A program made the position numbers and the translations under genes. From Oscillospiraceae bacterium (GTDB lineage: Bacteria; Bacillota; Clostridia; Oscillospirales; UBA929): 64,000 nt of DNA. The DNA is taken from contig WRAI01000008.1 of NCBI GenBank assembly GCA_009780275.1, forward strand, positions 337 to 64,336. The letters are read 5' to 3'. Below are positions 1-13,851 of this stretch, one piece after another; positions within the stretch are counted from its first letter, which is position 1; each line of letters starts with the position of its first letter. The notes under the pieces were generated by a model that ran no database searches, had not been told where the DNA came from, and worked only from the letters and a program-made list of their open reading frames with translations.

Positions 1-3000
1 TTTTGCCAATATACGCGTCAATGTCGCCGCCATCATTGATAAGCGTGACGCTTGGACGCACATTGTATTTTACCCGAAAAATCCCCGGTCCCTCCGCATT
101 TATGTCATGGTTTGTAAAAGCATGCTTTCGCTCAACGCCGTTTCCGCTGACATCCATCTCCCACCACGGCTCTATTGTTGTTGTGCCCGGTTCAACTTGC
201 GGATTTGCAACAGCGATCGGCGTATCGATTCGCAGCCCATTGCGCGCCATGTTTCCGGTAAAGGTAAAATCCTGTCCGATAGTGATCAGATTGAGATTGG
301 TATGGGGCACAAAAACACCACCTCCGTCACCTGCTGTGTTATCTGCTATGGACCCCACCGTCCCGCTGAATGAACTGTTCTGCATAACATAAATGCCGCC
401 GCCCTGGGCATTCCCCTCTGTTGTGCTGCCCACAGCTTCATTCCCCACAACCCGGCCACTCGTCGGATTCGTGGTTGTACCGCCGGCCTCCATCACAAAT
501 CTTGCACCATTCACGACCACAACGCCGCCGCCTCGTAATGCACGATTGCCGTAGTCGGGGTTTTCGTCTCCAATAATGCCGCCCGTCATTGTGAAGACGC
601 TGCTTGCGCCATTGACACGCACACCGCTCCCCTCTGTGATGGTGCCAGTTCCCGCGCCTGTCACAGGGTCGGTTCTGGCATGACGGTTATTGCGGATCCT
701 ACCGCCGGACATATTGAATATAGTTGCATTAGCCATATTAACGCCTCCGCCCATTGGGGCGCAGTTTTGTTCTATCGTACCACCACTCATGATGAATCTT
801 CCGTCATCAAGAGCCATGCCGCCACCATTCCAAGCTGTGTTCATGCAAATCTCGCCGCCGCTCATGGTAGCACTTGCGTCATCTCCAATATACACGCCAC
901 CACCGTTAGCTTCTATATCTGTGCTTGTATTGCCCTCGATGACACCGCCTGACATATCAAATCTGCTGCCCGCTCCTGATACCCACACACCGCCACCATC
1001 GCTCCGAGCCGTGTTGTCGCGTACAATTCCACCATCAGCTATGTTGAGAATGCTGGCTTGCGTTGACGCATCAGCAAACGCAGGACACTCTACGGCAATG
1101 CCGCCGCCATTGGTCTCGCTGTGATTTCCCGACACGATAACGCCGTCACTGACGTTAGCTGTTCCTCTGCTGATAAACATACCGCCACCATTGCGTGACA
1201 CGACATGGTTCACGATATGGCCACCACGCAGGTTAACGATGCCGCCGCGCACAAACACGCCGCCGCCGTTGCCTCGTTGGAACGACGCTTCGGTTGATGT
1301 TGCCCGGTTTTCGGCAATCATCCCGTCTTCTACAGTAAATGTACCGCCGTCAGCTGCATAGACCGCGCCGCCGTTCCCTGCCACCGTACTGCCTGTAGCA
1401 ATGTTTTCATTTTCGGTGTGGTTACTTTCGATTCTGCCGTTACGCATGGTGAAGTGGCTGTTTTCGCCTGAAACGAACACACCGCCGCCATTGGCCATGT
1501 TAGCGCTGCCGTTTTCCAAATTAAAATTGAAAGGACTGCCTGCGGCCGCAGCCTGATTTTCAATAATCAATCCATTAGTCATGTTGCCACGCCCGCCATT
1601 AGCAATATAGACGCCACCGCCGTTGCCGGCAAACACATCCACACCGGTAGCCGAAGAGTTCAGCACTCTGATGGCTGCATTGCCCTCAACCCTACCACCA
1701 TTCATATTAAAGGTACTGTTCGCGCCCGAAACAAACACACCCCCACCGTTTGACGTGTTTCTTGCGTTATTGGCAGTTACAGCACTGTGGCCTGTCACCG
1801 CCGCCGTAGCAATATTATCACGAATCACCCCGGTGCTCTGCATTGACTGGCTGCCCATGTTAAAGGTAGCGCCGTTGGCCACAAATACACCACCGCCATT
1901 GCCCGCGACCACATTTGACAAGTTGGAAACTCGCACCCGCTCAGCGCGGTTGCCGCTAATTTCGCCGCCATACATATTGAAGATAGCGTTTGTCCCTTGT
2001 GCAAATACACCTCCACCGTTAGATACGACAGTTGCCGTAAGGTTTCCTGTTGCCCCTGGGTCAGCCGCTACAGTTAACCCGGCATAATTTCCGGAAATTA
2101 CACCGTCATGCATCGTGAATGTGCCACCTGTTCGTATGCTTACAGCACCGCCGTTACTCCTTGTCGTTGTCCGATCAACAGAAGCGTCGATAACTGTCCC
2201 GATAGCACGATTATTTCGAATGACGCCGTTATACATGATAAATTGACCGTGTTCGCTTCCATCCGTTCCTATATTGATAGCACCGCCGGCATTTCTGGCT
2301 GTATTACCTTCCAAAACTCCGTCAAACATAACAAATCGAGCCATAGTAGCATCCTGTCCAAGATTTACAGCACCGCCGTTTCCTCTTACACCGGTTTGTG
2401 CAAAATTATTTCCACCTGCTCCTCTAGCAATATTATCTCGAAGAGTTCCTCCATACATAATCAGTGCTCCGGCACCGCGCACATGTACAGCACCACCGGC
2501 AGCTTGCGCATGATTGGAATGGATGAGAGAGCCCGGCATCAAAGTTAATCTGCCACCCCTTTGTACATCTGTCGCGCCGCTGTTATTCGTTGCGGCGTTT
2601 CTGATGACTGCACCCCGGCACATGATAAAGTGACCGCCAGTGTTGCCGGCAGCTCTTGGCTCTATTGCTACACCGCCACCTGAAAAGCCAGCTATTGCAG
2701 TTACATCCCAGTCGATAGGGGCAGGCGGCACCGCCGGAGCGCCTTGTCCGACAGCGGTGGCGCGATATTGCATAACAAAGTTTCGAATCACTAATCCGAA
2801 TTGATTAGGGTTTCCCGGCTCGCCGATGTCATCATGTGCGGCGTCATTGTTCGCGTTGTTTGCACTCCGTACCATAAACGGCCGCGTGTGGCCGGTCGCA
2901 TTGGTAGAAGTGTCGGTGAGCACGATTTGACCCGGTTCATAACTGCGATGCTGCAATAACGTTGCATCGTATTCGCTTTGTGTGATTTCTCCCGCCGCAA

Positions 3001-3676
3001 GACGTGCGTCAAGATCAAAGGTTTCACTGTGACGACCAACCAAAACAACTGTTGCCCCGCTGCGAACCTCTACTCTGCTGGCAGCGCCGACATTTCCTGT
3101 ATTGATATGGCTCGGGATGATGACATATGTAACTGTGTTTGCAGTCGCTGCCGCTGTAATTGCGTTCAGCACCCTTGTATAAATAGTGTTTGCCGGGGTA
3201 GGAGCAATCTCAACAATGCGATAGTTTGTTTCTCTGGCATACCAGATGCGCGGATCATCTATCTCTTCCTGTGTAAATAAGTCATGCACAGTCAGCGATG
3301 CTCGCAGAAGACCGGGTAGAGCCTCGTCCCGCGACTCTACAGAGAGGGCGTCTTCTATGGAACCATCGTGTCCTGCATCATTTTCATTACTTTCTTCGGT
3401 TTGCTTTCCATCTAGGTCATTTTTTTCAAGTTCCGTTTTACTTTCGACCTCTTCTTCACTAATTTCACTTTCTATGAACTCGCTTTCAACTTCGTCGCTC
3501 TCATATAACTCATAGTCGTCATGTATAGCATTATCGCTATCGTCGCTACTATTAATAATATTATCTCCATAGGTCGTACCTATAAAACTCACAAAAATGA
3601 GATTTATAGCCAAAAAAAGAGCCAGAACACTGAGCAAATAAAATCTTTTTTTTCTTTTTTCATTTGGGAAATACAT
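1..3676 (-). CDS. Very large secreted/cell-surface beta-helix repeat protein (Pmp/PbH1-like); N-terminus in window, C-terminus beyond position 1
   Basis: Manual translation of the minus strand from ATG at 3676 (RBS AAGGAG 6 nt upstream) stays open to position 1, so the ORF track does not list it. It has an N-terminal K-rich hydrophobic anchor (MYFPNEKRKKRFYLLSVLALFLAINLIFV), an acidic D/E/S tract, then dozens of ~25-30 aa repeats of the form NGGGV(F/Y)(V/I)..G..F.M.GG.I..N.A. Confidence 0.8.
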   Translation of the reverse strand, partial: MYFPNEKRKKRFYLLSVLALFLAINLIFVSFIGTTYGDNIINSSDDSDNAIHDDYELYESDEVESEFIESEISEEEVESKTELEKNDLDGKQTEESNENDAGHDGSIEDALSVESRDEALPGLLRASLTVHDLFTQEEIDDPRIWYARETNYRIVEIAPTPANTIYTRVLNAITAAATANTVTYVIIPSHINTGNVGAASRVEVRSGATVVLVGRHSETFDLDARLAAGEITQSEYDATLLQHRSYEPGQIVLTDTSTNATGHTRPFMVRSANNANNDAAHDDIGEPGNPNQFGLVIRNFVMQYRATAVGQGAPAVPPAPIDWDVTAIAGFSGGGVAIEPRAAGNTGGHFIMCRGAVIRNAATNNSGATDVQRGGRLTLMPGSLIHSNHAQAAGGAVHVRGAGALIMYGGTLRDNIARGAGGNNFAQTGVRGNGGAVNLGQDATMARFVMFDGVLEGNTARNAGGAINIGTDGSEHGQFIMYNGVIRNNRAIGTVIDASVDRTTTRSNGGAVSIRTGGTFTMHDGVISGNYAGLTVAADPGATGNLTATVVSNGGGVFAQGTNAIFNMYGGEISGNRAERVRVSNLSNVVAGNGGGVFVANGATFNMGSQSMQSTGVIRDNIATAAVTGHSAVTANNARNTSNGGGVFVSGANSTFNMNGGRVEGNAAIRVLNSSATGVDVFAGNGGGVYIANGGRGNMTNGLIIENQAAAAGSPFNFNLENGSANMANGGGVFVSGENSHFTMRNGRIESNHTENENIATGSTVAGNGGAVYAADGGTFTVEDGMIAENRATSTEASFQRGNGGGVFVRGGIVNLRGGHIVNHVVSRNGGGMFISRGTANVSDGVIVSGNHSETNGGGIAVECPAFADASTQASILNIADGGIVRDNTARSDGGGVWVSGAGSRFDMSGGVIEGNTSTDIEANGGGVYIGDDASATMSGGEICMNTAWNGGGMALDDGRFIMSGGTIEQNCAPMGGGVNMANATIFNMSGGRIRNNRHARTDPVTGAGTGTITEGSGVRVNGASSVFTMTGGIIGDENPDYGNRALRGGGVVVVNGARFVMEAGGTTTNPTSGRVVGNEAVGSTTEGNAQGGGIYVMQNSSFSGTVGSIADNTAGDGGGVFVPHTNLNLITIGQDFTFTGNMARNGLRIDTPIAVANPQVEPGTTTIEPWWEMDVSGNGVERKHAFTNHDINAEGPGIFRVKYNVRPSVTLINDGGDIDAYIGK

Positions 3677-3908
3677 TGAAACTTCTCCTTTCATTACATA
3701 ACGGATACATTTCAATTATACTTTTTTCATAGAGTAATACTACACCCAAAAGGATAAAAAATATCAAAAAAATCGCATCATCGACATTTCACTTGCAGCA
3801 TCTTCCGACAGCCAAACCTTGAAAAGCGGCACAGAATGCACACCATGCGACTTTTTTATTATAGTCTAGAGTCAAGTTTTCTACTGTCGACTCGTCTGCC
3901 AATTCTTC

Positions 3909-3937
3909 TTGACAACCCAATAAATCAATGCTATACT
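3909..3937 (+). promoter_or_regulatory. Sigma-A type promoter for tRNA-Pro (TTGACA-17 nt-TATACT)
   Basis: TTGACA at 3909-3914, 17-nt spacer, TATACT at 3932-3937, about 65 nt upstream of the tRNA. Confidence 0.55.
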
Positions 3938-4004
3938 GCTTTATCAGACAAGCATTACCGTTGAGGGGTAGAAGTCAGACGCCCTCATATTCTAAGCTAA
4001 AAAT

Positions 4005-4081
4005 CGAGGTGTGGCTCAGCTTGGTAGAGCGCTGCGTTCGGGACGCAGAGGCCGCAGGTTCAAATCCTGTCACCTCGACCA
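4005..4081 (+). tRNA. tRNA-Pro (anticodon CGG), CCA encoded
   Basis: A cloverleaf can be drawn by hand: acceptor CGAGGTG/CACCTCG, D arm GCTC/GAGC, anticodon stem CTGCG/CGCAG with loop TTCGGGA, T arm GCAGG-TTCAAAT-CCTGT, then ACCA. Confidence 0.93.
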
Positions 4082-4082
4082 T
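4066..4082 (+). repeat. attL core (17 bp, overlaps tRNA-Pro 3' end)
   Basis: Identical to 12506-12522. Confidence 0.9.
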
Positions 4083-4133
4083 GATTCCCTCAACACGTTG
4101 CGACACAACGATTACGGCGATTACAGAACGCTC

Positions 4134-4154
4134 CGTAACACATTCGTAACACAT
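4134..4154 (+). repeat. Tandem CGTAACACAT motifs (11-bp phase), candidate arm-type recombinase sites at the left end
   Basis: CGTAACACAT at 4134-4143 and 4145-4154. The same motif recurs at 12359-12368, with a degenerate copy at 12370-12379 at the right end. Confidence 0.45.
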
Positions 4155-4177
4155 AAAAATCGATTGCTTGTACAACG

Positions 4178-4206
4178 AACGACACCTCAAATCGGGTGTC
4201 GTTTTT
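4178..4206 (+). terminator. Rho-independent terminator just inside attL
   Basis: AACGACACC / GGTGTCGTT 9-bp stem, 8-nt loop, T-run. Confidence 0.6.
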
Positions 4207-4489
4207 GTTTGTGTACATATGTTCGCATTGTGTGATGTCGATTGATTTCCCAATTGTCATTCGTGCATAAAATCACCCATTATATTATACCATTTTCGAT
4301 TTTAATTGCGTTCGCCATTGCACCCAATTCACACATCATCTACAACCGTCAAAATCAACCGCTAACTGATGAAAACAATGTTTGCAATGTCAACTATGCG
4401 TTCGATTGAAATGCTGTAAAACTGCGAATTTCTGTGTTATGCCGTGAATGCAAAAAATGAACCCATTACGGATTCATTTCATTGCATTA

Positions 4490-4753
4490 TCAAATATGGT
4501 ATTCGGTGTTGTCATGGTCAACATTTGAAATTAAATCATCAATTTTGACACCCAACACAATCGAAATTTTATATAACGTGCGAACTGACATTGTGAATTT
4601 ATCATTGTTGCTTTCAAGTCGTCTGATATAATCATGTGACAAATCAACGAGTTCAGATAATTCTGCCGCAGTCATTTTTATTTGTTTACGATAACGTTTG
4701 ATGTTTTTGCGAATGGTCAAATATATGTCATCATCGAAATCAAATGTACGCAT
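4490..4753 (-). CDS. XRE-family helix-turn-helix regulator (element repressor candidate)
   Basis: 87 aa with an HTH_3-like segment (MTAAELSELVDLSHDYIRRLESN). It is divergent from the cargo gene. Confidence 0.75.
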   Translation of the reverse strand: MRTFDFDDDIYLTIRKNIKRYRKQIKMTAAELSELVDLSHDYIRRLESNNDKFTMSVRTLYKISIVLGVKIDDLISNVDHDNTEYHI

Positions 4754-4905
4754 TGATTATCACCCCACGTTAATTGTACATAAATCAACAAAGGGTGTAT
4801 GTGACTGTGCAGGTCACAAAAATTTGACACACGCCCAAAATCATGTTACCATGTCATTGTCGAAATCGACAAAATATGTAAAAATGACAAGGAGAAACAC
4901 GATTT

Positions 4906-6657
4906 ATGAAAAAGCGGATTTTATCACTGGCACTTGCAATGTTGATGATGTTTTCATTGACAGGTGCGATGTTGACAACGGGGGCGAATGGTGCGATTTC
5001 AAGCATTACATATATTCCAAATCAAATTGCAAATTTCACGATTGAAAATATTGAATTATTTGGCGGACAAATTGATGAAGTCGCACAAGGACAATCGCAT
5101 ACAATTCGTGGAATTGCACCATTTATTCACAATGAAGGACACGAATTTTACGCATGGGGAATTCGTATGATGAACATGGAAACATTTCAATTTGAATGGA
5201 TTGAATTTTTTTATGAGGGTCAAGTCATCACGTTAGGGCAAGACGAATTTGCTGAACGTCATATGATAACAATAATGCCTGTATGGGTACCCGAAAATCA
5301 AAATCCGCCCGAATTAGCAAATGTTTGCACGATTACAGGTCAACTTCCATGTAATTGCGATGTTTTCGTTTGTGACGTTTGTGGTAGAGGTGATTGTGCT
5401 TGCTGTGATGATTGCAATGAATTTCCTTGCGTTTGCGAACCTGTTTTTTGTCCAGATTGCTATTGGAATCCATGTATTTGTGATGTCGAACGCACAGTAT
5501 GGGATTATGACGCAAGAGCAAACGCAAATTCATGGGCGAGAGATTACATAGAAACGGCATGGGATTTTAATATGCTGTCAAGTCGTGTATTGCAAAATAA
5601 CACATGGCAAGCAGGAATTTCACGTTTACACATTGCAGACATTGCTGCACGGTTTATCGAGCATTATACAAATATGACAATCAATGAATTCATTGATTCG
5701 CTTGACGATGATGATTTATACGAAATTCCCGATTTATATGACATTGCAAATTTGTATGAGTTTGATAGTGATGCGTATGCGATGGTTCGATTGGGCATTT
5801 TTCGGGGTTCGCAGTCATATCGTTGGACGGGTTTGCAATTTAGGGCAAATGATTTAATCACACGACAAGAAGCGTCAACATTATTGGGGCGTTTAGTTTC
5901 GTTATTTTGTGGTGCAATTCCGTCGAACATTACAAACGAACAATTGCCGTTTGAGGAAAATTTGCCGTCGTGGGCAAGAAATTATATTCATTTTTTGTAC
6001 AATCAGCAACCGACTCGAATAATGGGAAATACATGCTCACAGGGCGGATATTTATTTCGACCGTTGATGACATTTCCGACACAACAAATGACGATTGCCG
6101 TTGTACGGACATTGAATACATTGTGTGATTTCGGAAATTGTGAATGTGTAATTGACGTTGAACCGCAGACAAAAACAATTTATGTAATTCGTGAAACTTT
6201 TGGCACAACAAATACACAGGCATTTGAAAATTATCAAGCAATGCGGAATGTATTTGACAATGGAAATTTTGCGACATATACGGCGGTTGAGGTTACATGG
6301 CATAGTAGATTTACAGATAACAGCGGAAATTTTGTATTAGAGAATGTTTGGGTTGGTCAAGAAGTTTGGGGTTGGTTAGCAGGAAGTCATGTTTCGGCAG
6401 TTTGGAATGGCAACGAGGGTGCGAGTTTTGATAGGGGTTCAAAAATGGTAGGAGGAATTAGCAATGGGTGGGCAAGAAATAAAGCATTTGGAACAGAGCA
6501 AGCGTTATGGGATTTTATCGAAGGCGATGAAAATTGGGCACATGAAAATCGTTCAACAGGTTGGGGATTTAGAAAATTTTATTTAGTCAACGGTATATGG
6601 ACAACAGGCGATTCAACATGGAGTGGTTTTGATGGGGATTTGATTGTGAGTGCATAA
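4906..6657 (+). CDS. Secreted surface protein: signal peptide, Cys-rich module, three SLH-like repeats, Trp-rich C-terminal domain
   Basis: 583 aa. Signal peptide MKKRILSLALAMLMMFSLTGA. About 50 aa carry ~16 Cys (CNCDVFVCDVCGRGDCACCDDCNEFPCVCEPVFCPDCYWNPCICD). Three SLH-like segments are present (SWARDYIETAW...ISRLHIADIAARF; AMVRLGIFRG...ITRQEASTLLGRL; SWARNYIHFLY...). Confidence 0.65.
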   Translation: MKKRILSLALAMLMMFSLTGAMLTTGANGAISSITYIPNQIANFTIENIELFGGQIDEVAQGQSHTIRGIAPFIHNEGHEFYAWGIRMMNMETFQFEWIEFFYEGQVITLGQDEFAERHMITIMPVWVPENQNPPELANVCTITGQLPCNCDVFVCDVCGRGDCACCDDCNEFPCVCEPVFCPDCYWNPCICDVERTVWDYDARANANSWARDYIETAWDFNMLSSRVLQNNTWQAGISRLHIADIAARFIEHYTNMTINEFIDSLDDDDLYEIPDLYDIANLYEFDSDAYAMVRLGIFRGSQSYRWTGLQFRANDLITRQEASTLLGRLVSLFCGAIPSNITNEQLPFEENLPSWARNYIHFLYNQQPTRIMGNTCSQGGYLFRPLMTFPTQQMTIAVVRTLNTLCDFGNCECVIDVEPQTKTIYVIRETFGTTNTQAFENYQAMRNVFDNGNFATYTAVEVTWHSRFTDNSGNFVLENVWVGQEVWGWLAGSHVSAVWNGNEGASFDRGSKMVGGISNGWARNKAFGTEQALWDFIEGDENWAHENRSTGWGFRKFYLVNGIWTTGDSTWSGFDGDLIVSA

Positions 6658-6770
6658 TCACAACACGCACAATCCACAGTAGAACCGTTTAGTTCATATG
6701 TGAACATGATAACGTGTTGACGATGTGGATAATCGGTTAAACCGCAGAATTAGCGGTCACAATGATAAAT

Positions 6771-6808
6771 AAAAACGCAATGTCGATTTTGTCAACATTG
6801 CGTTTTTT
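6771..6808. terminator. Bidirectional hairpin terminator between convergent element genes
   Basis: AACGCAATGT / ACATTGCGTT 10-bp stem flanked by an A-run and a T-run. Confidence 0.65.
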
Positions 6809-6836
6809 GTGTTCAAAGGAAAATAAAATTTAATAA

Positions 6837-7199
6837 TTATGCAGATTTTTTGATTTCATACGTTTTGTTACAATGATTCATAAATTGATACATTGCATGA
6901 GTAACAATGTTCGTACAATGCACGATTGCAAAAAATATGTCATCATGCAAATCACCAACGTGTTTATTATGTTTTTGTTGATAGATTTCATCAGCGTGTT
7001 TCAATGCGTTTGCAATAATCGAATATGACAATTGATTGTGTTTTTCATTGTATGCAATTAAATCACACGTGCAACGAATGTCATTGCATTTTTCGTCATC
7101 ACGGTTTTTTGATTCGTGATACAATTTCATCATTTCGTTGATGTCGTTTTGCATTTGAGTTTGTGCAGATTTCGAGAGATTTTTGTTTGTATTATTCAT
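6837..7199 (-). CDS. Hypothetical protein (His/Cys-rich, 120 aa)
   Basis: Clean ORF with an upstream RBS region. No recognisable motif. Confidence 0.5.
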   Translation of the reverse strand: MNNTNKNLSKSAQTQMQNDINEMMKLYHESKNRDDEKCNDIRCTCDLIAYNEKHNQLSYSIIANALKHADEIYQQKHNKHVGDLHDDIFFAIVHCTNIVTHAMYQFMNHCNKTYEIKKSA

Positions 7200-7432
7200 T
7201 TGATAATACTCCTTTTTAATGTAAATTTCGTTGATTTCTCAACGATTTATTATGTATATATTATAACATAAAATCAAGCAAAAGTATATGATTTTTGAAA
7301 AGAAAAATAAAGTCGCAAACGCAGACAGCACAAGGTGTTCAGAGGGTCGAGAGGATTATTTTTCAGAAAGTTTTGATATTGTTTTTTGGTTCGCAAAATG
7401 CGGGCAAATTTTATTACAAAGAGGTATTAAAT

Positions 7433-7672
7433 ATGCAGGTGCAATTACAAGGAATTAGAGCATTAGATTTCAAATCAGACAATGGCGAAAATGTCAAAGG
7501 CACACAGTTATTTGTTACATACAATGATGAGAGTGTAAACGGTTTAATGACGGATAAAATTTTCGTCAAACAAGAAGTTCAAATTCCGCAAGGAATCAAA
7601 CAAAACGACATTTTGAATTTGATGTTCAATAACAAGGGAAAAGTCATCGCAATCAGTCAAGCGAAACAATAA
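7433..7672 (+). CDS. Hypothetical small protein (79 aa)
   Basis: ATG at 7433 follows AAAGAGG. The longer track ORF starting at 7295 lacks an RBS. A terminator hairpin follows at 7675-7706. Confidence 0.5.
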   Translation: MQVQLQGIRALDFKSDNGENVKGTQLFVTYNDESVNGLMTDKIFVKQEVQIPQGIKQNDILNLMFNNKGKVIAISQAKQ

Positions 7673-7722
7673 CGAAAAAATGGGCGATTTATTTCGCCCA
7701 TTAAATTTATGAGGAGCATTTT

Positions 7723-8232
7723 ATGAGCAACAAACAAATTAAACAAGTCAAGTTCGGCGCTGTCATTGGTTACATGATTATCATGTTCGCAGTATTTCGC
7801 AGATTTAGCGGTTTTCATATATTCGATGATGTTCGTATCGGAACATTGCCAATTATCGCATTACACGTCATTCTAACGGCGCTCGCTATCGTTGTATTGT
7901 TCGTTATGATTTATGTGTTCGCAACAAATCATTTCGCACGAAAAGCAATACAGGATAAAATCACAAATACGGCGTGTTTGAAAGAGATAACAACGGCAAA
8001 ATTGATTTCGTATAAATTATCAAATACGGATTACGTCACGTTGGCATTTCGTGCGGAGGGTGTTTCCAAAGATGTATGGGAATCGAAACGCAATGCGATT
8101 CAATCGGCAATCAATTATACAATCATTGGAGATATAGAATATTCAAAAAATTGTTGGTCGGTCGTTTATTTCAACGCACGAAAAGGACGGACAAAATCAA
8201 ATCAAGCGAGGTTAGTTGAGAATGATGTTTAA
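7723..8232 (+). CDS. Membrane protein (2-3 TM), probable anchor partner of the FtsK-like ATPase
   Basis: 169 aa with hydrophobic helices (FGAVIGYMIIMFAVF; LPIIALHVILTALAIVVLFVMIYVF). Its 3' end overlaps the next gene. Confidence 0.6.
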   Translation: MSNKQIKQVKFGAVIGYMIIMFAVFRRFSGFHIFDDVRIGTLPIIALHVILTALAIVVLFVMIYVFATNHFARKAIQDKITNTACLKEITTAKLISYKLSNTDYVTLAFRAEGVSKDVWESKRNAIQSAINYTIIGDIEYSKNCWSVVYFNARKGRTKSNQARLVENDV

Positions 8233-8965
8233 TGTTGGATATGATTTGCAAGCATGGAATGATTACAGCGAGAAAAAATACATTACGGCAGATATTTCAT
8301 CAAGCACAAATTCACAAACAGTCATTTGTGGCATGAGCGGAAGTGGTAAGTCATATTTTTTGAATCAGTTATTTGCAAAATTAGTCAAGGCAGAACCCAA
8401 CGGCGAATTTTATTTTGCAGATTTCAAAGGCGATGATTCATTTGCCCATTTAAGGGATTGCAAAAATTATTATTCGTACAAGAACACAATCAAAGCGTTA
8501 GACATTGTGCATGAGAAGTTACAGCAACGAATGAGCGGTATAGATAAATCAAGAAATCAAATAACGTTAATTTTTGATGAGTATGTAGCGAATATTTTAT
8601 CGTTGTTGAATGAATACAAGAAACACGCCCAAGCAGTAATGAATAAAGTATCAGAATTATTGATGATGGGTCGTTCAATGTGTGTTCGATTGATTGTTTC
8701 ATGCCAGCGTCCCGATGCCGCCGTTTTCAATTTTGGTTCAAGATTGAATTATGAAATTTGCATTATTTTAGGTAAGTTTAACAAATCAATTTATGATATG
8801 TTAATGCCGGAACACATCGACGCCGTCAAAATGAAAATTGACAATCATAATTTCGGTTGTGGCGAGGGTTCGTGCGTAATTGGTTCAGATTTGCATTTTA
8901 TCAAAGTTGGCGAAGTTGAAAACATGGAAAATATAAAGAGAATTTGCAAGCAAGCGTTATCATAA
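8222..8965 (+). CDS. FtsK/SpoIIIE (TcpA-like) DNA translocase ATPase domain protein
   Basis: Walker A GMSGSGKS, Walker B LIFDEY, and an FtsK-type LIVSCQRPD motif. The start is ambiguous between 8216 and 8225. Confidence 0.75.
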   Translation: MMFNVGYDLQAWNDYSEKKYITADISSSTNSQTVICGMSGSGKSYFLNQLFAKLVKAEPNGEFYFADFKGDDSFAHLRDCKNYYSYKNTIKALDIVHEKLQQRMSGIDKSRNQITLIFDEYVANILSLLNEYKKHAQAVMNKVSELLMMGRSMCVRLIVSCQRPDAAVFNFGSRLNYEICIILGKFNKSIYDMLMPEHIDAVKMKIDNHNFGCGEGSCVIGSDLHFIKVGEVENMENIKRICKQALS

Positions 8966-8984
8966 TTTTAGAAAACGATATTAT

Positions 8985-9016
8985 AACACGTTCAGATTTT
9001 GAGCGTGTTTTTTTGT
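8985..9016 (+). terminator. Terminator after the FtsK-like gene
   Basis: AACACG...CGTGTT stem followed by T7. Confidence 0.5.
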
Positions 9017-9119
9017 TGCGGTAGAACACAGAATTTTGCGGTTTAACAGATTGGTTCATGTGTTGTCATGGTTGTGTATTGATTGCGAAAATTAGCAAGT
9101 GTGCCGCAGATTTTCAGAT

Positions 9120-9260
9120 GTCACAATGTCACAGAGGTAATAAGAAATTATAGCGTTTTGGGGTTCGTCATGTTGTATAAAATGAGGGTCAAAAGTGGTT
9201 GAAGTTTGTGCAATTTGACGGACGATTTCGGGCGGTTTTTCGAGTTGAAATAGTATAATA
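9120..9260 (+). repeat. Copy A of a bipartite repeated module (GTCACA..GTCACAGAGGTAATAAGAAATTATA ... GGGCGGTTTTTCGAGTTGAAATAGTATAATA)
   Basis: Near-identical blocks recur at 10641-10671 and 10713-10743, so the module brackets rep. Confidence 0.7.
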
Positions 9261-9500
9261 GGAGTATATAAATAATCAAATTAAAGGAGAAAAATTTTTA
9301 TGGGATTTACATAACGATAAAAGATTTTGCGTGAGGGTACGCAAATCGTGCGAAGCGATTGAATTGGATTACTACATTCAATACATAGGTGTTTTGTGAC
9401 ACATTTAGAAAGTCACAGATATAAAGTTCACAAGTTCACATTGAAAACAATATGCACAATTTTATGTGCAAATAAAATAACGTAAAGGATACTATAAAAA

Positions 9501-10631
9501 ATGAGTAACAATAATTTTCCCAATGATTGCATGAACGAAATGCAAAACGAACGTGTACGCAGATTTTTTATCACAATAAATCATTCAGACGTGCGAGAAT
9601 GGACACATGATAAAATTCGTGATGTATGCGAGAAGTTTCCGACAATTAGATATTTTTGTTTTGCAGATGAAATCGGTAACGAAAGTAAGCGTTTACATTC
9701 GCATATATACATAGAATTAGACAACGCAATGCGGTTTAGTACAATGATTAACAATTTCAATGGGGGTCATGTGCAAAAAATACATGAATTTGGTACGGGA
9801 TTTGATTGTCGTAATTACATACGTAAAGATGGTAGGCATTTTGATAAACATGACACAGTTGTTGAAAATACGTTTTATGAATGGGGGCAAGTTCCGCAAG
9901 ACAAATCACAAGGCAAACGCAACGATTGGAGCGATGCACGAACAATGTTAAATGATGGTTTTGATGTTGATAGTATTATTGATACGTTTCCTCATTTAAT
10001 GCGTTATCGTAATATATTAGAAAATGAAATGTTGCATATGAAATCAAGGGGCAGGCAAATGAAAGGTCGTGCGTATGTAACATATATTCAAGGTCGCACG
10101 AATTTGGGTAAAACAACATGGGTATTTGATGAATATGGCGATGATGAAGTATGCAACATTATTGATTACGAAAACAAAAATCAAATATTCGATAGTTATA
10201 TGGGCGAAAGGGTTTTGTTATTAGACGAGTTCGATTCAAGCATTACATATTCGATTTTGAATGGGTACATTGACAGGCGAAAAGTAAAATTGAGTGCGAG
10301 GTATCACAAAAGAACGGTGTGTTATGAAAAAATATACATCGTATCGAATTTGCCGTTAGAAAAACAATATGAAAAATTGAAAAAAGACAATCGTGCATTT
10401 TACGACACGTTCATTCGCAGAATTGATAAAGTTATGGTTTACACAGATTTTTGCAAATTCAACGAATACACGACAAGTGAATATTTTGAGTTGTTAGAAC
10501 ACGACAAATCAATCAATGGTTTTGCGACGAGTGAAAGTAAGAAACAAACGGGATTTTGTAGTATATGTGGCGAATTTGATTGTATGGGCGATAATTGCGA
10601 CGATTTATGGGGCGAGGATTTAGCGAGTTAG
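9501..10631 (+). CDS. rep: Rolling-circle replication initiator with HUH endonuclease + SF3 helicase architecture (CRESS-DNA-virus/pCRESS-like Rep)
   Basis: Motif I RFFITINH, motif II HSHIYIEL, motif III NYIRKDG (YxxK), Walker A GRTNLGKTT, Walker B VLLLDEFD, motif C YIVSN. There is a C-terminal Cys cluster CSICGEFDCMGDNC. Confidence 0.75.
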   Translation: MSNNNFPNDCMNEMQNERVRRFFITINHSDVREWTHDKIRDVCEKFPTIRYFCFADEIGNESKRLHSHIYIELDNAMRFSTMINNFNGGHVQKIHEFGTGFDCRNYIRKDGRHFDKHDTVVENTFYEWGQVPQDKSQGKRNDWSDARTMLNDGFDVDSIIDTFPHLMRYRNILENEMLHMKSRGRQMKGRAYVTYIQGRTNLGKTTWVFDEYGDDEVCNIIDYENKNQIFDSYMGERVLLLDEFDSSITYSILNGYIDRRKVKLSARYHKRTVCYEKIYIVSNLPLEKQYEKLKKDNRAFYDTFIRRIDKVMVYTDFCKFNEYTTSEYFELLEHDKSINGFATSESKKQTGFCSICGEFDCMGDNCDDLWGEDLAS

Positions 10632-10640
10632 GTTTGGTTA

Positions 10641-10743
10641 GTCACAGTCACAGAAGTAATAAGAAATTATACAAGAAACGGATTCGACTTCGGTCGGGTT
10701 CGTTTTTTATTTGGGCGGTTTTTCAAGTCAGAATAGTATAATA
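10641..10743 (+). repeat. Copy B of the bipartite repeated module; contains the rep terminator
   Basis: GTCACAGTCACAGAAGTAATAAGAAATTATA at 10641-10671 and GGGCGGTTTTTCAAGTCAGAATAGTATAATA at 10713-10743. A hairpin plus T-run lies at 10677-10708. Confidence 0.7.
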
Positions 10744-10780
10744 AATGTATAAAATAAACAAAAAAGGAAGTACATTTAAT

Positions 10781-11074
10781 ATGATGGAAAAACGCATGAA
10801 TATTCCGCAAACAACGAGTATTGAAAACGCATTACATATTTATTATCGTCATGCAGAATTAGGCAACAAAGAGATAACAATTTTATTCGGGCAGCGTTCC
10901 CCGAACACGTTGTCGAAATTGAAAAAGATTGCAAAGGACGAAATGCGAGAACGTGAAATGATGTCGTTTGGTTCAAACACGGTCAACACGGTTGTTGCGT
11001 TTGAAGTTTGGGGTATTGACGTTAAGGATTTAGAGCATCGCATGAAAAAGATTAAACAGTTGAAATTAGCGTAA
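10781..11074 (+). CDS. Small putative DNA-binding protein upstream of int (excisionase/regulator candidate)
   Basis: 97 aa from ATG 10781 (RBS AAGGAAG). The call rests on its position immediately 5' of the integrase and an HTH-like stretch (NKEITILFGQRSPNTLSKLKKIA). Function is inferred only. Confidence 0.4.
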   Translation: MMEKRMNIPQTTSIENALHIYYRHAELGNKEITILFGQRSPNTLSKLKKIAKDEMREREMMSFGSNTVNTVVAFEVWGIDVKDLEHRMKKIKQLKLA

Positions 11075-11112
11075 ATAAAAATATGATGATGTTGATTGCT
11101 TGTAAATGGGTG

Positions 11113-11140
11113 TTGACACTACTTTTCAATGTGTTATAAT
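11113..11140 (+). promoter_or_regulatory. Promoter for int (TTGACA-16 nt-TGTTATAAT, extended -10)
   Basis: TTGACA at 11113-11118 and TATAAT at 11135-11140, preceded by TGT. Confidence 0.55.
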
Positions 11141-11177
11141 TCGTTCACAAGCAATCGACAGGAAAGGATAAAAAAAT

Positions 11178-12353
11178 ATGTCGATTAAAAAGATTACAGG
11201 CAAATCAAAAGACGGTTTGCAAAAGTATCATGTTCGTGTAAATTTCATGTGCAACAGAACAGGCAAATATAAGCAGTTCACAAAAATTGCGTATGGGTTA
11301 GAAAATGCAAAAGAATTAGAAATTCAGTTGCAAAAACAAAAAAATGAACATGATATAGATTCAAAAATGACGATTCAGCAGTTATTTGATGAATACATGG
11401 CAAAGAAACGGTTTGAAATTCGTGAATCAACATGGGATACCCATAAGCGACAATATGAAAATCATGTTCAGTCGATTTTAGGCAATATACGAATTAGCAA
11501 GTTGACAACGCAGATTTTGCAGGATTGGAAAACACAAATTGAATCAAAAGGAATGGCGTTGAAAACAAAACAGCATATGTACGGTAATTTACGAGCGTTG
11601 TTAAATTATGCGGTCAAAATGCAGTACATCAATCAGAATTTATTGTTGATTGTCGGCAATTTCAAAGATGCAATGTACACGAAACAGGAAGTTGATTTTT
11701 ACACGTCGGACGAATTTTTGCAGTTTATTGAAGTTGCGAAAGCACAAGCAATAAAACACGAGCGAGAAAATCACGATTGGTCGGAGTATGAGTATTATGT
11801 ATTTTTCAATATTGCGTTTTATTGTGGTTTGCGAAAAAGTGAAATTCATGGGTTGCAATGGAGTGATATTTGTGGTAATATGTTAAGTGTTCGGCGTTCG
11901 ATTCAACAGAAAATCAAAAATGTTGATATTGTGCAACCCCCTAAAACAAAATCGTCATATCGTACAATGCAAATGCCACAAGCATTGATTGACATTTTGA
12001 ACGAACACAAGAAACGCAAACAGCAATTACACAATTTCAGCGATGACAATTTCATTTTAGGCGTTGAGCGTTCATTGCGTAATAGTTCAGTTGCAAATCG
12101 AAATAGTTTATATGCGGAATTGGCACAGTTAAAGCACATACGCATACATGATTTCAGACATTCTCATGCTTCTGTTTTATGCAATGCAAATGTGAATATT
12201 CAGCAAGTTTCAAAACGAATGGGTCATGCACGAGTTGAGGAAACACGGAACACATATTCGCACTTATATCCTCGTGATGTTGAAATTGCCGTTGATGTAT
12301 TTAACAAAATCGACAATGCGAACAAGCGTCCTCGATTGTACGAAATCGCATGA
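11178..12353 (+). CDS. int: Tyrosine site-specific integrase
   Basis: 391 aa with an N-terminal SAM-like domain. The C-terminal catalytic pattern includes GLRKSE, HDFRHSHAS and a terminal Y (NTYSHLY). It lies next to attR. Confidence 0.88.
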   Translation: MSIKKITGKSKDGLQKYHVRVNFMCNRTGKYKQFTKIAYGLENAKELEIQLQKQKNEHDIDSKMTIQQLFDEYMAKKRFEIRESTWDTHKRQYENHVQSILGNIRISKLTTQILQDWKTQIESKGMALKTKQHMYGNLRALLNYAVKMQYINQNLLLIVGNFKDAMYTKQEVDFYTSDEFLQFIEVAKAQAIKHERENHDWSEYEYYVFFNIAFYCGLRKSEIHGLQWSDICGNMLSVRRSIQQKIKNVDIVQPPKTKSSYRTMQMPQALIDILNEHKKRKQQLHNFSDDNFILGVERSLRNSSVANRNSLYAELAQLKHIRIHDFRHSHASVLCNANVNIQQVSKRMGHARVEETRNTYSHLYPRDVEIAVDVFNKIDNANKRPRLYEIA

Positions 12354-12505
12354 CGAAACGTAACACATTTTTAACACAATATTGTGAAATTGTTGCGAAT
12401 ATCAAAATATTGCGAAATAGGCAAAATGCGTGAACACATTGATATGAATAGGTTATAATAGGTTTGGGTGATTGGCGAATATATTAAAATTGTTTGCAAA
12501 TTCGA

Positions 12506-12522
12506 CCTGTCACCTCGACCAT
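12506..12522 (+). repeat. attR core (17 bp)
   Basis: Identical to the tRNA 3' end at 4066-4082. Confidence 0.9.
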
Positions 12523-12565
12523 TAGTCTTAATGAGTCTGTATCCCTAGTTACCTCTGTTGCCAAC

Positions 12566-12610
12566 AAAAGCGTTCTTATCAGCATATTAAACGCTGATAA
12601 GAACGCTTTT
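12566..12610. terminator. Bidirectional terminator (original tRNA-Pro terminator / MFS gene terminator)
   Basis: Perfect 18-bp inverted repeat AAAAGCGTTCTTATCAGC / GCTGATAAGAACGCTTTT with a 9-nt loop. Confidence 0.75.
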
Positions 12611-12669
12611 GTTTTACTATTATTGCAGACAAATTTTAACAGTAGATACCCAAAAACTTGATAACCTAA

Positions 12670-13851
12670 TTATGTTTTGTTGCCTGCCTTTAGTGCGCGC
12701 GCTAAAATTTCATTGCACACAAATACAAGAACAACAAAAGCCAAGCCCAAAGGGAAAAGCGCCTCATAAGAGATAAAATGCATGATTTGGCTGGTCATAA
12801 AGAATAACACTGCTATCCCGGCACCAAAAGCCGCAAGTTCATACCCTACAATTTTAGACACAGTGTGGGGTGCAAATCGATTGGATGTATCACTGACCAA
12901 GGTTGGAAGCATCGGGCCTAGTCCAAGCCCTGCCAAAGCCATGCCCCAAACGTTGCCGACGAAATATAATACTATAACTCCCACTACGGCTACACCCGCG
13001 CCAATACGCACAATCGGAACTTCCTTTAACCACTTTGCGACCCAGCCAAAAAACACTCGACTGACCGTCATTGATATGTAGTAAACGGCTGAAAATATTG
13101 CCACTGTATAAGTCGTTTCTTGCCCGCGCGCAATCAGTGCTGCGCCGGTAAAAAACACGAGGGTATAGTCTGTGCCGCCCAAGAAGAAGAATGTCAATAT
13201 CTCCACAACCTGATGCCACCGTTTTGTTAAATATCGTTTCTTTTCTGTGTTTTCTTCTAACTCGCCCTGAGCTGACTCATTATCATCAATCCAAATCTTT
13301 TTATACATGCTAAGCAAAAGCATAATTGCCACTGCCCCCAAAATACCGGTAATCACAAAATATCCCGCGCGCCAACTTAGCACTGCCATCATCTGACCCA
13401 TAATAATAGGACTTAACGTAGCGCCAACACCCCAAAAGCAGTGCATCCAGTTGTTGTGCCTAGCGGTAAAGTGTTTTGCCATATACGAGTTCATGCTGGA
13501 TGCCATTAATCCAGTGCCAAACCCATAAATCGTTATGGTTGCAAGCACTAATGTAAAATTCGGCGACAAGGCAAGGCCAATAAAGCCTAAACTCATGATG
13601 ATAAGACCATATAAATAAACCGTTTGCAACTTCATAAAACGATTCAGTTTAGATAAGATGATCCCGGCTAATGTGTAGGTAACAGAATATCCCACCAAGA
13701 TATATCCTGTGTGGGCTGTCGTCATTCCCCGGATTTCATCTGCAATGCCAAGCCATGACACAGTAAATGCACCATCGGGAAATCCAACAACAAAATAACT
13801 CACCAAGATAACGCCGAGTAACCATATATTGCTTTTTTTTGCTTCAATCAT
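12670..13851 (-). CDS. MFS transporter
   Basis: 393 aa with about 12 predicted hydrophobic helices. Co-oriented with and overlapping a TetR gene. Confidence 0.75.
   Translation of the reverse strand: MIEAKKSNIWLLGVILVSYFVVGFPDGAFTVSWLGIADEIRGMTTAHTGYILVGYSVTYTLAGIILSKLNRFMKLQTVYLYGLIIMSLGFIGLALSPNFTLVLATITIYGFGTGLMASSMNSYMAKHFTARHNNWMHCFWGVGATLSPIIMGQMMAVLSWRAGYFVITGILGAVAIMLLLSMYKKIWIDDNESAQGELEENTEKKRYLTKRWHQVVEILTFFFLGGTDYTLVFFTGAALIARGQETTYTVAIFSAVYYISMTVSRVFFGWVAKWLKEVPIVRIGAGVAVVGVIVLYFVGNVWGMALAGLGLGPMLPTLVSDTSNRFAPHTVSKIVGYELAAFGAGIAVLFFMTSQIMHFISYEALFPLGLAFVVLVFVCNEILARALKAGNKT

Follow-up and report, generated by a model that had tools for sequence, protein, structure and literature searches.

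An 8.4-kb element at a tRNA-Pro gene

The 64-kb stretch analyzed here (64,000 nucleotides of contig WRAI01000008.1 from an Oscillospiraceae bacterium, referred to as the window) carries an 8.4-kb element bounded by att repeats at the 3′ end of a tRNA-Pro(CGG) gene. This gene, the integration target (4005 to 4081; all features lie on the forward strand unless stated otherwise), was identified by ARAGORN as the sole tRNA gene of the window and matched the Rfam tRNA model with 67.4 bits; no match besides tRNA-Pro was returned by the Rfam scan. An exact 17-bp repeat had been reported in a preliminary description of the locus, and CCTGTCACCTCGACCAT was indeed found at exactly two places, 4066 to 4082 (attL core) and 12506 to 12522 (attR core), with a chance expectation of 0 in 100 shuffles in which up to 2 mismatches were allowed. 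The repeat had been taken for the last 17 nt of the tRNA region; the core comprises the final 16 nt of tRNA-Pro, with the encoded CCA among them, and a single T that lies outside the gene. Because the core holds these 16 nt and the T, tRNA-Pro is intact after the insertion. The segment between the copies is AT-richer than its surroundings, as first described, with a G+C content of 0.356 for positions 4083 to 12505 versus 0.499 on the left (1 to 4004) and 0.484 on the right (12523 to 64000). Outside the element, the window encodes housekeeping functions (EF-G, EF-Tu, NrdD, AspRS, HisRS, RecD2, and a GH94 enzyme).

Nine genes lie between the att copies and encode, in order, a divergent XRE-type regulator, a large secreted protein, a 120-aa accessory protein, a 79-aa predicted single-stranded-DNA-binding protein (SSB), a membrane protein, an FtsK-like ATPase, a Rep protein, a 97-aa protein, and a tyrosine integrase. 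The gene list given in the preliminary description was thus right in outline. It had also noted that genes for a type IV secretion system (T4SS) or a capsid are missing, and among the nine genes no T4SS, capsid, coat, or Zot model of Pfam, PHROGs, or NCBIfam was matched. An integrative and conjugative element (ICE) of the Tn916/ICEBs1 superfamily is defined by a T4SS of its own, with a VirB4-type ATPase, channel proteins, and a cell wall hydrolase, and none of the nine genes matched these; the VirB4 model gave only a P-loop match of 23 bits (cut-off, 643).

The tyrosine integrase (391 aa, 11178 to 12353) matched Pfam Phage_integrase with 63.4 bits, together with a SAM-like N-terminal domain, and PHROG_1 at 2.5e-67. 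Its catalytic residues are intact, with the full set present (R219, K256/258, H324, R327, H350, and Y360). The gene is preceded by a consensus sigma-70-like promoter (11113 to 11140; TTGACA-16-TATAAT with TG, 12/12 matches) and ends 152 bp from the right att copy, against the 150 bp given in the preliminary description. A short direct repeat, CGTAACACA, lies just inside both ends of the element, as would be expected of integrase arm sites. Its left copy is the arm-type-like repeat CGTAACACATTCGTAACACA (4134 to 4153), a putative integrase arm site with a 90% match to 12359 to 12378, where the repeat search placed the right arm-type-like copy, CGTAACACATTTTTAACACA.

Beyond the right att copy, hairpin folding identified a bidirectional terminator of the host locus (12563 to 12613, not assigned to a strand), with the tRNA on one side and a major facilitator superfamily (MFS) gene on the other. 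The hairpin, whose stem spans 21 bp (−23.2 kcal/mol, z = −10), is preceded by an A-run and trailed by a T-run; a gap of 41 nt separates it from the right att copy, and one of 57 nt from the stop codon of the convergent MFS gene. The strong terminator postulated earlier is therefore real, and its position fits a tRNA terminator that was displaced by the insertion, which is provable only through an empty site. The predicted junction sequences are GTTCAAATCCTGTCACCTCGACCATTAGTCTTAATGA for attB and AAATTCGACCTGTCACCTCGACCATGATTCCCTCAAC for attP.

Rep, single-stranded-DNA-binding protein, and coupling protein genes

Rep (376 aa, 9501 to 10631) carries the motifs of an HUH nuclease (I, FFITIN22; II, HSH66; III, YIRK106) and of a superfamily 3 (SF3) helicase (Walker A at 198, Walker B at 239, and motif C at 280). 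Its sole solved sequence relative was the Rep hexamer of porcine circovirus 2 (PDB 7lar, 6e-5), and its one plasmid match was RepA of p4M. Against Pfam Viral_Rep (PF02407), the protein scored 15.7 bits (cut-off, 26), and RNA_helicase was likewise below threshold; its homologues carry Viral_Rep and RNA_helicase (PF02407/PF00910), with PF02407 present in P0002 to P0004, L006, and L007. Because of the HUH and SF3 motifs, the 7lar match, and the homologues with both domains, we assign this protein from its sequence as a nuclease-helicase initiator of the CRESS (circular Rep-encoding single-stranded) type, which refines the plain Rep of the preliminary description. It is the putative rolling-circle initiator and relaxase of the element.

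Relatives of Rep were found at 238 loci in a degenerate-peptide scan of bacterial assemblies with one genome per species, nearly all of them in Clostridia and Erysipelotrichia, and 32 further relatives were found in IMG/VR. Where enough upstream sequence was available, 85 of 107 loci showed a GC-rich stem-loop whose loop contains (T)AGTATTAC, the median distance to the downstream rep being 93 nt (for example, L052 9853 to 9880, L062 9878 to 9907, L012 4508 to 4539, and L067 5802 to 5830). This loop is the circovirus/nanovirus nonanucleotide and occurs in both FtsK-type and Zot-type elements. The presence of the TAGTATTAC stem-loop at 85 of the 107 loci argues that this is a true family of rolling-circle initiators. 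The window element and its closest relative, L004, are among the other 22; neither the window nor L004 yielded AGTATTAC with at most 1 mismatch in a hairpin loop, with L067 serving as the positive control. The spacer between the ATPase gene and rep measures 535 bp (8966 to 9500), and the only candidate origin lies within it (9358 to 9440), consisting of a weak hairpin, ATTGAAT-tggattactac-ATTCAAT (9358 to 9382; ΔG, −3.2 kcal/mol; z, −0.9), with GGATTAC in its 11-nt loop, followed by GTGACA/GTCACA/GTTCACA repeats. The intergenic stretches 8966 to 9500 and 10632 to 10780, with the loop at 9358 to 9382 and the GTAATAAG units, are the candidate places for a Rep nick site.

The 79-aa protein (7433 to 7672) belongs to a family with no Pfam model. 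Its AlphaFold2 model, computed from a 49-sequence alignment, is a five-stranded barrel of the oligonucleotide/oligosaccharide-binding (OB) fold with a predicted local distance difference test score (pLDDT) of 95. Foldseek searches of BFVD returned viral proteins of 81 to 90 aa with TM-scores of 0.79 to 0.89, including one from Inoviridae sp. and one named "RstB-like protein"; the SSB of Thermus inovirus OH3 and Orf1 of phage B5 were matched as well. Matches in the PDB were weak (E of ~0.05 to 0.3, TM-score of ~0.5), with ribosomal OB-fold proteins first, followed by the Ff gene V protein and other SSBs. In hhalign, the family profile matched the protein of GenBank bajarodino virus 30 that is annotated as RstB-like, with a probability of 98.5%. 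By predicted fold and profile match, then, the protein is identified as an RstB-like, inovirus-type SSB, and one of the two proteins first listed as unknowns acquires a predicted function. Neither DUF961 nor any other match that would link it to HelP was obtained with the 79-aa family or with the 111- to 136-aa proteins that occupy the same position in relatives.

Downstream of this gene, a 169-aa membrane protein (7723 to 8232), recognized by hydropathy, is followed by a 247-aa P-loop ATPase of the FtsK/SpoIIIE type (8222 to 8965), the start of which overlaps the stop of the membrane protein gene by 11 nt. The ATPase scored 24.5 bits against Pfam FtsK_SpoIIIE (PF01580; cut-off, 24) and 1.8e-15 against the FtsK/SpoIIIE-like PHROG. 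In BLASTP, it aligned with residues 195 to 374 of a 422-aa FtsK_SpoIIIE protein (E = 1e-9) that follows a homologous Rep in an Erysipelotrichaceae element adjoining guaA (L006). The membrane protein matched the N-terminal part of FtsK-like proteins of 436 to 441 aa in phmmer (E = 9e-5 and 2e-4), and a profile built from it in two rounds with trimmed hits aligned with residues ~28 to 201 of 12 nonredundant FtsK-like proteins of 420 to 490 aa; the ATPase profile covers residues ~195 to 430 of the same 12 fused proteins. Full-length FtsK_SpoIIIE proteins also adjoin a homologous Rep in other Firmicute elements, and in one fused example (L107) FtsK_SpoIIIE reached 66.9 bits and TrwB_AAD_bind, a type IV coupling protein domain, just passed. 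These alignments identify the membrane protein and the ATPase, listed separately in the preliminary description, as the transmembrane N-terminal half and the C-terminal motor half of one split FtsK/TcpA-like coupling protein.

In L004, the matching two genes overlap by 17 nt. Elsewhere, a short ATPase (237 to 264 aa) is encoded upstream of rep at 22 loci, with a membrane protein gene before it in most mapped loci. Since the split is kept in L004 and at other loci, we regard it as a conserved arrangement and reject a frameshift. With transmembrane segments first and the motor second, the pair has the topology of TcpA, ConQ, and VirD4, the reverse of that of inovirus pI/Zot. At E ≤ 10, a seed profile of Zot did not match the window ATPase, which scored 422 bits against the FtsK-type profile that it had helped to seed; this separation of Zot from FtsK was read from first-round profiles, as the iterated Zot profile drifted into the FtsK group. 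As a separate observation, a contig of a Defluviitaleaceae metagenome-assembled genome (MAG) (L067, 3864 to 11091) holds two inverted copies of the ATPase-Rep module with a split integrase between them. An SSB gene and a membrane protein gene were detected for the left copy only, and each copy has its own origin hairpin, with the loops AGTATTAC and AATATTAC.

Class membership and route of transfer

The closest relative, L004, lies in the MAG of another Oscillospiraceae isolate (Lab288P1bin4) and encodes a Rep 43% identical to that of the window element. Its genes are ordered as XRE regulator, secreted protein, SSB, membrane protein, ATPase, long spacer, Rep, 96-aa protein, and integrase. It ends in an exact 16-bp repeat with copies 7.8 kb apart, and arm-type-like repeats, TTCGTACAC, lie inside both ends, so that position and motif of these repeats are conserved between L004 and the window element. 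Because L004 occupies a different site with an exact repeat of its own, this lineage has inserted at at least two different sites. To the right of L004 (13055 to 16400), its att core continues into the truncated 3′ end of a tRNA, beyond which lies a second island that carries AbiEii and a further integrase; the arrangement is suggestive of tandem accretion at a single tRNA site.

We are close to certain that the window element is a site-specifically integrated rolling-circle plasmid of the integrated pCRESS class, which may also be described as an integrative and mobilizable element (IME). The class is already described, and this copy adds an Oscillospiraceae example. Kazlauskas et al. (2019) defined nine groups of bacterial CRESS-like Reps, most of which they found on elements that a tyrosine recombinase had inserted, chiefly into tRNA genes (PMC6668415). 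Their family (i), which comprises pCRESS1 to 3, 5, and 8, encodes Rep, an FtsK-like ATPase, an SSB, and a tyrosine recombinase, lacks virion genes, and sometimes includes a surface-exclusion protein, as exemplified by the 8-kb ButMB-E1 of Butyrivibrio in tRNA-Gly (PMC6668415). The window element likewise combines an HUH and SF3 Rep, a tyrosine recombinase with direct repeats in a tRNA gene, an FtsK-like ATPase, and an SSB with the absence of virion genes. Its assignment to family (i) is by gene content, the pointer to a Rep clade being the match to p4M RepA alone, the name-giver of pCRESS1 to 3. It differs in having two genes for the FtsK-like protein, an SSB of the small RstB type, and an uncultured Oscillospiraceae MAG as host, and in lacking the TAGTATTAC hairpin of most relatives.

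A second described group with the same layout is IME_Class_7, defined by Rel_PF02407, TcpA, and a tyrosine integrase, as in IME_SiniSF1_ebfC (Coluzzi 2017, PMC5357655; Guédon 2017, PMC5704250). Streptococcal members are ordered as TcpA gene, rolling-circle-type "relaxase," excisionase, and tyrosine integrase; all streptococcal PF02407 IMEs carry TcpA, and two class 7 examples are described (PMC5357655, PMC5704250). The window element shares the order of coupling protein, rolling-circle-type "relaxase," small protein, and integrase, has its own integration/excision module and att ends, and, like class 7, encodes no T4SS; the TcpA features, an N-terminal transmembrane region and PF01580, are distributed over two genes that are colinear with the fused proteins. 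It differs from class 7 in a Rep below the PF02407 cut-off, a split TcpA, a tRNA target instead of ebfC, and additional SSB, XRE, and secreted-protein genes. The IME-like half of the earlier label "IME or AICE-like" stands for this att-bounded element with a tyrosine integrase, and the half that invokes an actinomycete integrative and conjugative element (AICE) with FtsK-only transfer is the less likely one.

The order of an OB-fold protein, an FtsK-like coupling protein, and a rolling-circle relaxase also resembles helP-conQ-nicK of ICEBs1 and orf23-22-21-20 of Tn916, where the relaxase likewise replicates the excised element. No sequence link connects the 79-aa protein with HelP, and the T4SS genes that come next in ICEs are absent from the window element; NicK is a Rep_trans protein that needs host PcrA, whereas the window Rep has its own SF3 helicase. 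Rolling-circle plasmid Reps can act as ICEBs1 relaxases, as cited in the streptococcal IME literature.

Homologous Reps are also found in Gram-positive inoviruses. Six GenBank "bajarodino viruses" and IMG/VR relatives are true inoviruses with Zot above the Pfam cut-off, several single-transmembrane open reading frames (ORFs) of 45 to 65 aa, and a large, gIII-like or adsorption-like protein that bears both a signal peptide and a C-terminal anchor; many of them also have an RstB-like SSB and the TAGTATTAC hairpin. Their genomes measure 5 to 10 kb and carry a repressor and often an integrase; in uncultivated virus genomes of IMG/VR (L012, L018, L024, and others) and in bajarodino viruses such as PQ006165.1, Rep is 31 to 38% identical to the window Rep and is accompanied by an RstB-like SSB. 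Among Zot-linked Reps, Walker A and YxxK were present in 41 of 41 and the HUH pattern in 39 of 41, from which it follows that these inoviruses use a CRESS-type nuclease-helicase Rep; inovirus Reps were said to be without a helicase domain in a 2019 survey. Zot-linked and FtsK-linked Reps were interleaved in a rough neighbor-joining tree. The inovirus link is a property of the Rep family and not of this locus. True inoviruses with relatives of the window Rep include L012, L013, L018, L024, L033, L039, and L010 from IMG/VR and L122 (PQ006165.1). Two short contigs with a Firmicute-type Rep, L093 (labeled a Methanobacteriota archaeon) and L045 (labeled Desulfovibrio piger), are probably misbinned; L093 also carries Zot-type ATPases, and the L045 Rep adjoins that of inovirus contig L010 in the rough tree.

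By the defining features of these classes, the element is no ICE, no inovirus, and no AICE. For its transfer, we propose as the most likely route a mobilization model that we consider about an even bet, combining excision by the integrase, rolling-circle unwinding by Rep, and export via the Firmicute T4SS of a helper. The XRE repressor would hold the element silent. Upon induction, the integrase would recombine attL with attR to release an 8.4-kb circle, with the 97-aa protein probably acting as the directionality factor. The 535-bp spacer would contain an origin at which Rep then nicks one strand, staying on its 5′ end and unwinding the DNA with its own SF3 helicase, and the 79-aa SSB would coat the displaced strand. 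The two-piece coupling protein would deliver the single-stranded DNA (ssDNA) with its bound Rep to a mating pore supplied by a conjugative element in the same cell, probably an FA-type T4SS of Firmicutes as in Tn916- or ICEBs1-like ICEs. In the recipient, the strand would be recircularized, copied, and integrated into tRNA-Pro. The 583-aa secreted protein may serve as cargo or as a surface factor, for example, an adhesin or exclusion protein.

Several observations weigh against mobilization of this kind. Rep falls under the Viral_Rep cut-off and the ATPase barely exceeds that of its own Pfam family, the canonical TAGTATTAC origin hairpin is missing from both the window element and L004, and the candidate hairpin at 9358 to 9382 is thermodynamically insignificant. 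No helper T4SS was found within the 64-kb window or in the part of the remaining contig that was seen, and neither an empty attB nor a circular attP was found in the scanned collections, which lack the organism. Specifically, a degenerate attL/attR/attB/attP pattern had 0 matches in JGI metagenomes and IMG/VR, the integrated form included; because the integrated form was likewise unmatched, the organism is absent there and the junction scan is uninformative. When the flanking MFS protein was used as an exact query to find a contig without the element, only the same contig was retrieved. Transfer has been demonstrated for no element of the class, a class 7 helper with TcpA and an FA-type T4SS being a proposal only (PMC5357655, PMC5704250), and Kazlauskas et al. 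(2019) read the FtsK-like protein as a DNA segregation ATPase (PMC6668415). The preliminary description, which left the route of transfer open, was fair on this point, since the literature on the class also does no more than propose helpers.

The reading by Kazlauskas et al. of integrated plasmids whose ATPase serves DNA segregation (PMC6668415) supports the likeliest alternative, although we consider it unlikely: an integrated rolling-circle plasmid without transfer of its own, which excises, replicates by Rep and SSB, and is inherited while the membrane-anchored FtsK-like ATPase segregates the copies at cell division, or else a fixed remnant. It would agree with the failure to see a helper, an empty site, or a circle, with the absence of the canonical origin hairpin, and with the 100% identity of three copies recovered from separate samples, each of them either integrated or a fragment. 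One such copy, a Logan contig from a separate sequencing run (L002, SRR5215140), matches window positions 4052 to 13177 with 100% identity over 9126 bp; its left end, a 31-mer ending at the last attL base, was considered as an empty site and rejected as an assembly-graph branch within the conserved tRNA. All enzymes are intact and the att repeats perfect, however, and a relative at another site with its own repeat indicates that the lineage has moved. The spread of the Rep family over many Clostridia families, at 238 loci, requires horizontal transfer, and in Firmicutes an N-terminal transmembrane region with an FtsK motor beside a rolling-circle relaxase-like gene is typical of coupling proteins.

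An origin from inoviruses, as a satellite or capsid-less derivative, appears improbable. In such a case, the module of Rep and RstB-like SSB would make ssDNA in the manner of a filamentous phage, and a helper inovirus would supply the coat and Zot proteins to package that strand (compare RS1/CTXphi), or the FtsK-like pump would export it in place of Zot. True inoviruses have homologues of both the Rep and the 79-aa SSB, and these two, together with the divergent XRE repressor, mirror rstR-rstA-rstB; in addition, Reps linked to Zot and to FtsK interleave, and both ATPases belong to the FtsK-HerA superfamily. The Inoviridae feature of Rep with a gene V/RstB-type SSB is found in the window element, but the pI/Zot ATPase is not, nor are several single-transmembrane proteins of 30 to 90 aa (no coat candidate of this kind emerged from the ORF list and hydropathy) or a large anchored adsorption protein, as the C terminus of the large secreted protein is without an anchor. 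The fused relatives place the transmembrane region N-terminal to the motor, as in coupling proteins and opposite to pI/Zot, and a satellite would need no membrane ATPase of its own.

Autonomous transfer as in AICEs, in which the FtsK-like ATPase alone would pump double-stranded DNA into a neighboring cell as TraB does for elements of the pSAM2 type, is very doubtful. Elements of the pSAM2 type are likewise small and integrated in a tRNA gene, which for pSAM2 itself is also tRNA-Pro, and the gene set of pSAM2 parallels the present one in Int, a rolling-circle Rep, an FtsK-like ATPase, one or more small membrane proteins, and a repressor. A weak similarity to NCBIfam plasmid_TraB was detected (E = 0.0066 for the window ATPase and 3.7e-7 for a fused relative), but the score of 15 bits compares with a cut-off of 800, and the bare 247-aa motor leaves no room for the C-terminal DNA-recognition domain of a TraB-type translocase. 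The element also differs from AICEs in Rep family, in ATPase size and domains, and in host biology, and an SF3-bearing Rep with a dedicated SSB points to a single-stranded intermediate. The TraB mechanism is not known outside mycelial actinomycetes. We would give only slight credence to the idea that the family descends, without a capsid, from filamentous phages of Gram-positive bacteria, or is the plasmid ancestor of these phages, in which family the Zot/coat module was swapped for the two-piece membrane-anchored FtsK-like pump and Rep/RstB-coated ssDNA is exported by the pump alone or in vesicles, without T4SS or virion, although, if true, such an exit would be a DNA export route not yet described.

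Nothing suggests unusual biology of this particular copy. Its interest lies in the class, widespread but experimentally untouched small integrated plasmids with relatives at 238 loci, for which the coupling protein encoded as two genes in about two dozen Clostridia elements and the circovirus-type TAGTATTAC hairpin as the family origin provide handles. The Rep and SSB module common to plasmids and true inoviruses bears on the exchange of replication modules between ssDNA viruses and plasmids.

Accessory genes and intergenic cassettes

The XRE/Cro-C1-type helix-turn-helix (HTH) regulator (87 aa, 4490 to 4753, reverse strand) is transcribed divergently from the other genes of the element, matched Pfam HTH_3 at 2.6e-10 as well as PHROG repressor families, and is conserved in L004. 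The following gene encodes a Cys-rich protein of 583 aa (4906 to 6657) with a signal peptide and 15 Cys in aa 141 to 200, for which no family reached threshold in Pfam, PHROGs, or NCBIfam. Its identification as a surface layer homology (SLH) protein in the preliminary description was not borne out, as the SLH model gave E = 0.054 and 13.9 bits against a cut-off of 20.8, which reflects only faint SLH-like repeats. It is probably a cargo or surface protein. In L004, a secreted protein (5815 to 7032) is likewise encoded directly after the XRE gene; the two have no detectable homology to each other, and the L004 protein has weak SLH-like motifs and a CAP domain. The position after the XRE gene may be a swappable slot for surface proteins.

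Between this gene and the convergent gene for the 120-aa accessory protein (6837 to 7199, reverse strand), the hairpin search placed a terminator-like hairpin with a 16-bp stem (6771 to 6807, not assigned to a strand). The 120-aa protein, the second of the early unknowns, is still without a family match in Pfam, PHROGs, or NCBIfam; it is absent from L004 and was found only in copies of this element. The 97-aa protein (10781 to 11074; 109 aa from the first ATG), which has a homologue only in L004, had no family match in the same three collections, and its single-sequence AlphaFold2 model was poor (pLDDT of 62). Its gene occupies the slot of an excisionase (HTH_17, DUF3173) in relatives, and the product is a putative directionality factor or regulator.

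A terminator-like hairpin from the hairpin search follows the ATPase gene (8985 to 9009). An operator/promoter-like cassette, recognized from its repeats and from alignment with L004 units, is present twice, upstream of rep (copy 1, 9118 to 9280) and before the 97-aa gene (copy 2, 10641 to 10763). It consists of two GTCACA repeats and GARGTAATAAGAAATTATA, followed by a conserved promoter-like stretch; in copy 1, the GTCACA repeats are followed by GAGGTAATAAGAAATTATA and then by TTGAAA-N16-TATAAA, the hexamers being read from the sequence. Four analogous copies lie in L004 (7031 to 7063, 9015 to 9078, 9599 to 9732, and 11099 to 11232), and the duplicated cassette is probably a shared operator/promoter. 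The duplicated AATAGTATAATA was considered as a variant nonanucleotide and rejected, as it forms no hairpin and L004 keeps only ATAATA; it is more likely a −10 region. The rep leader (9284 to 9314) contains an ORF of only four codons, ATGGGATTTACATAA, behind a good ribosome-binding site (AAAGGAG).

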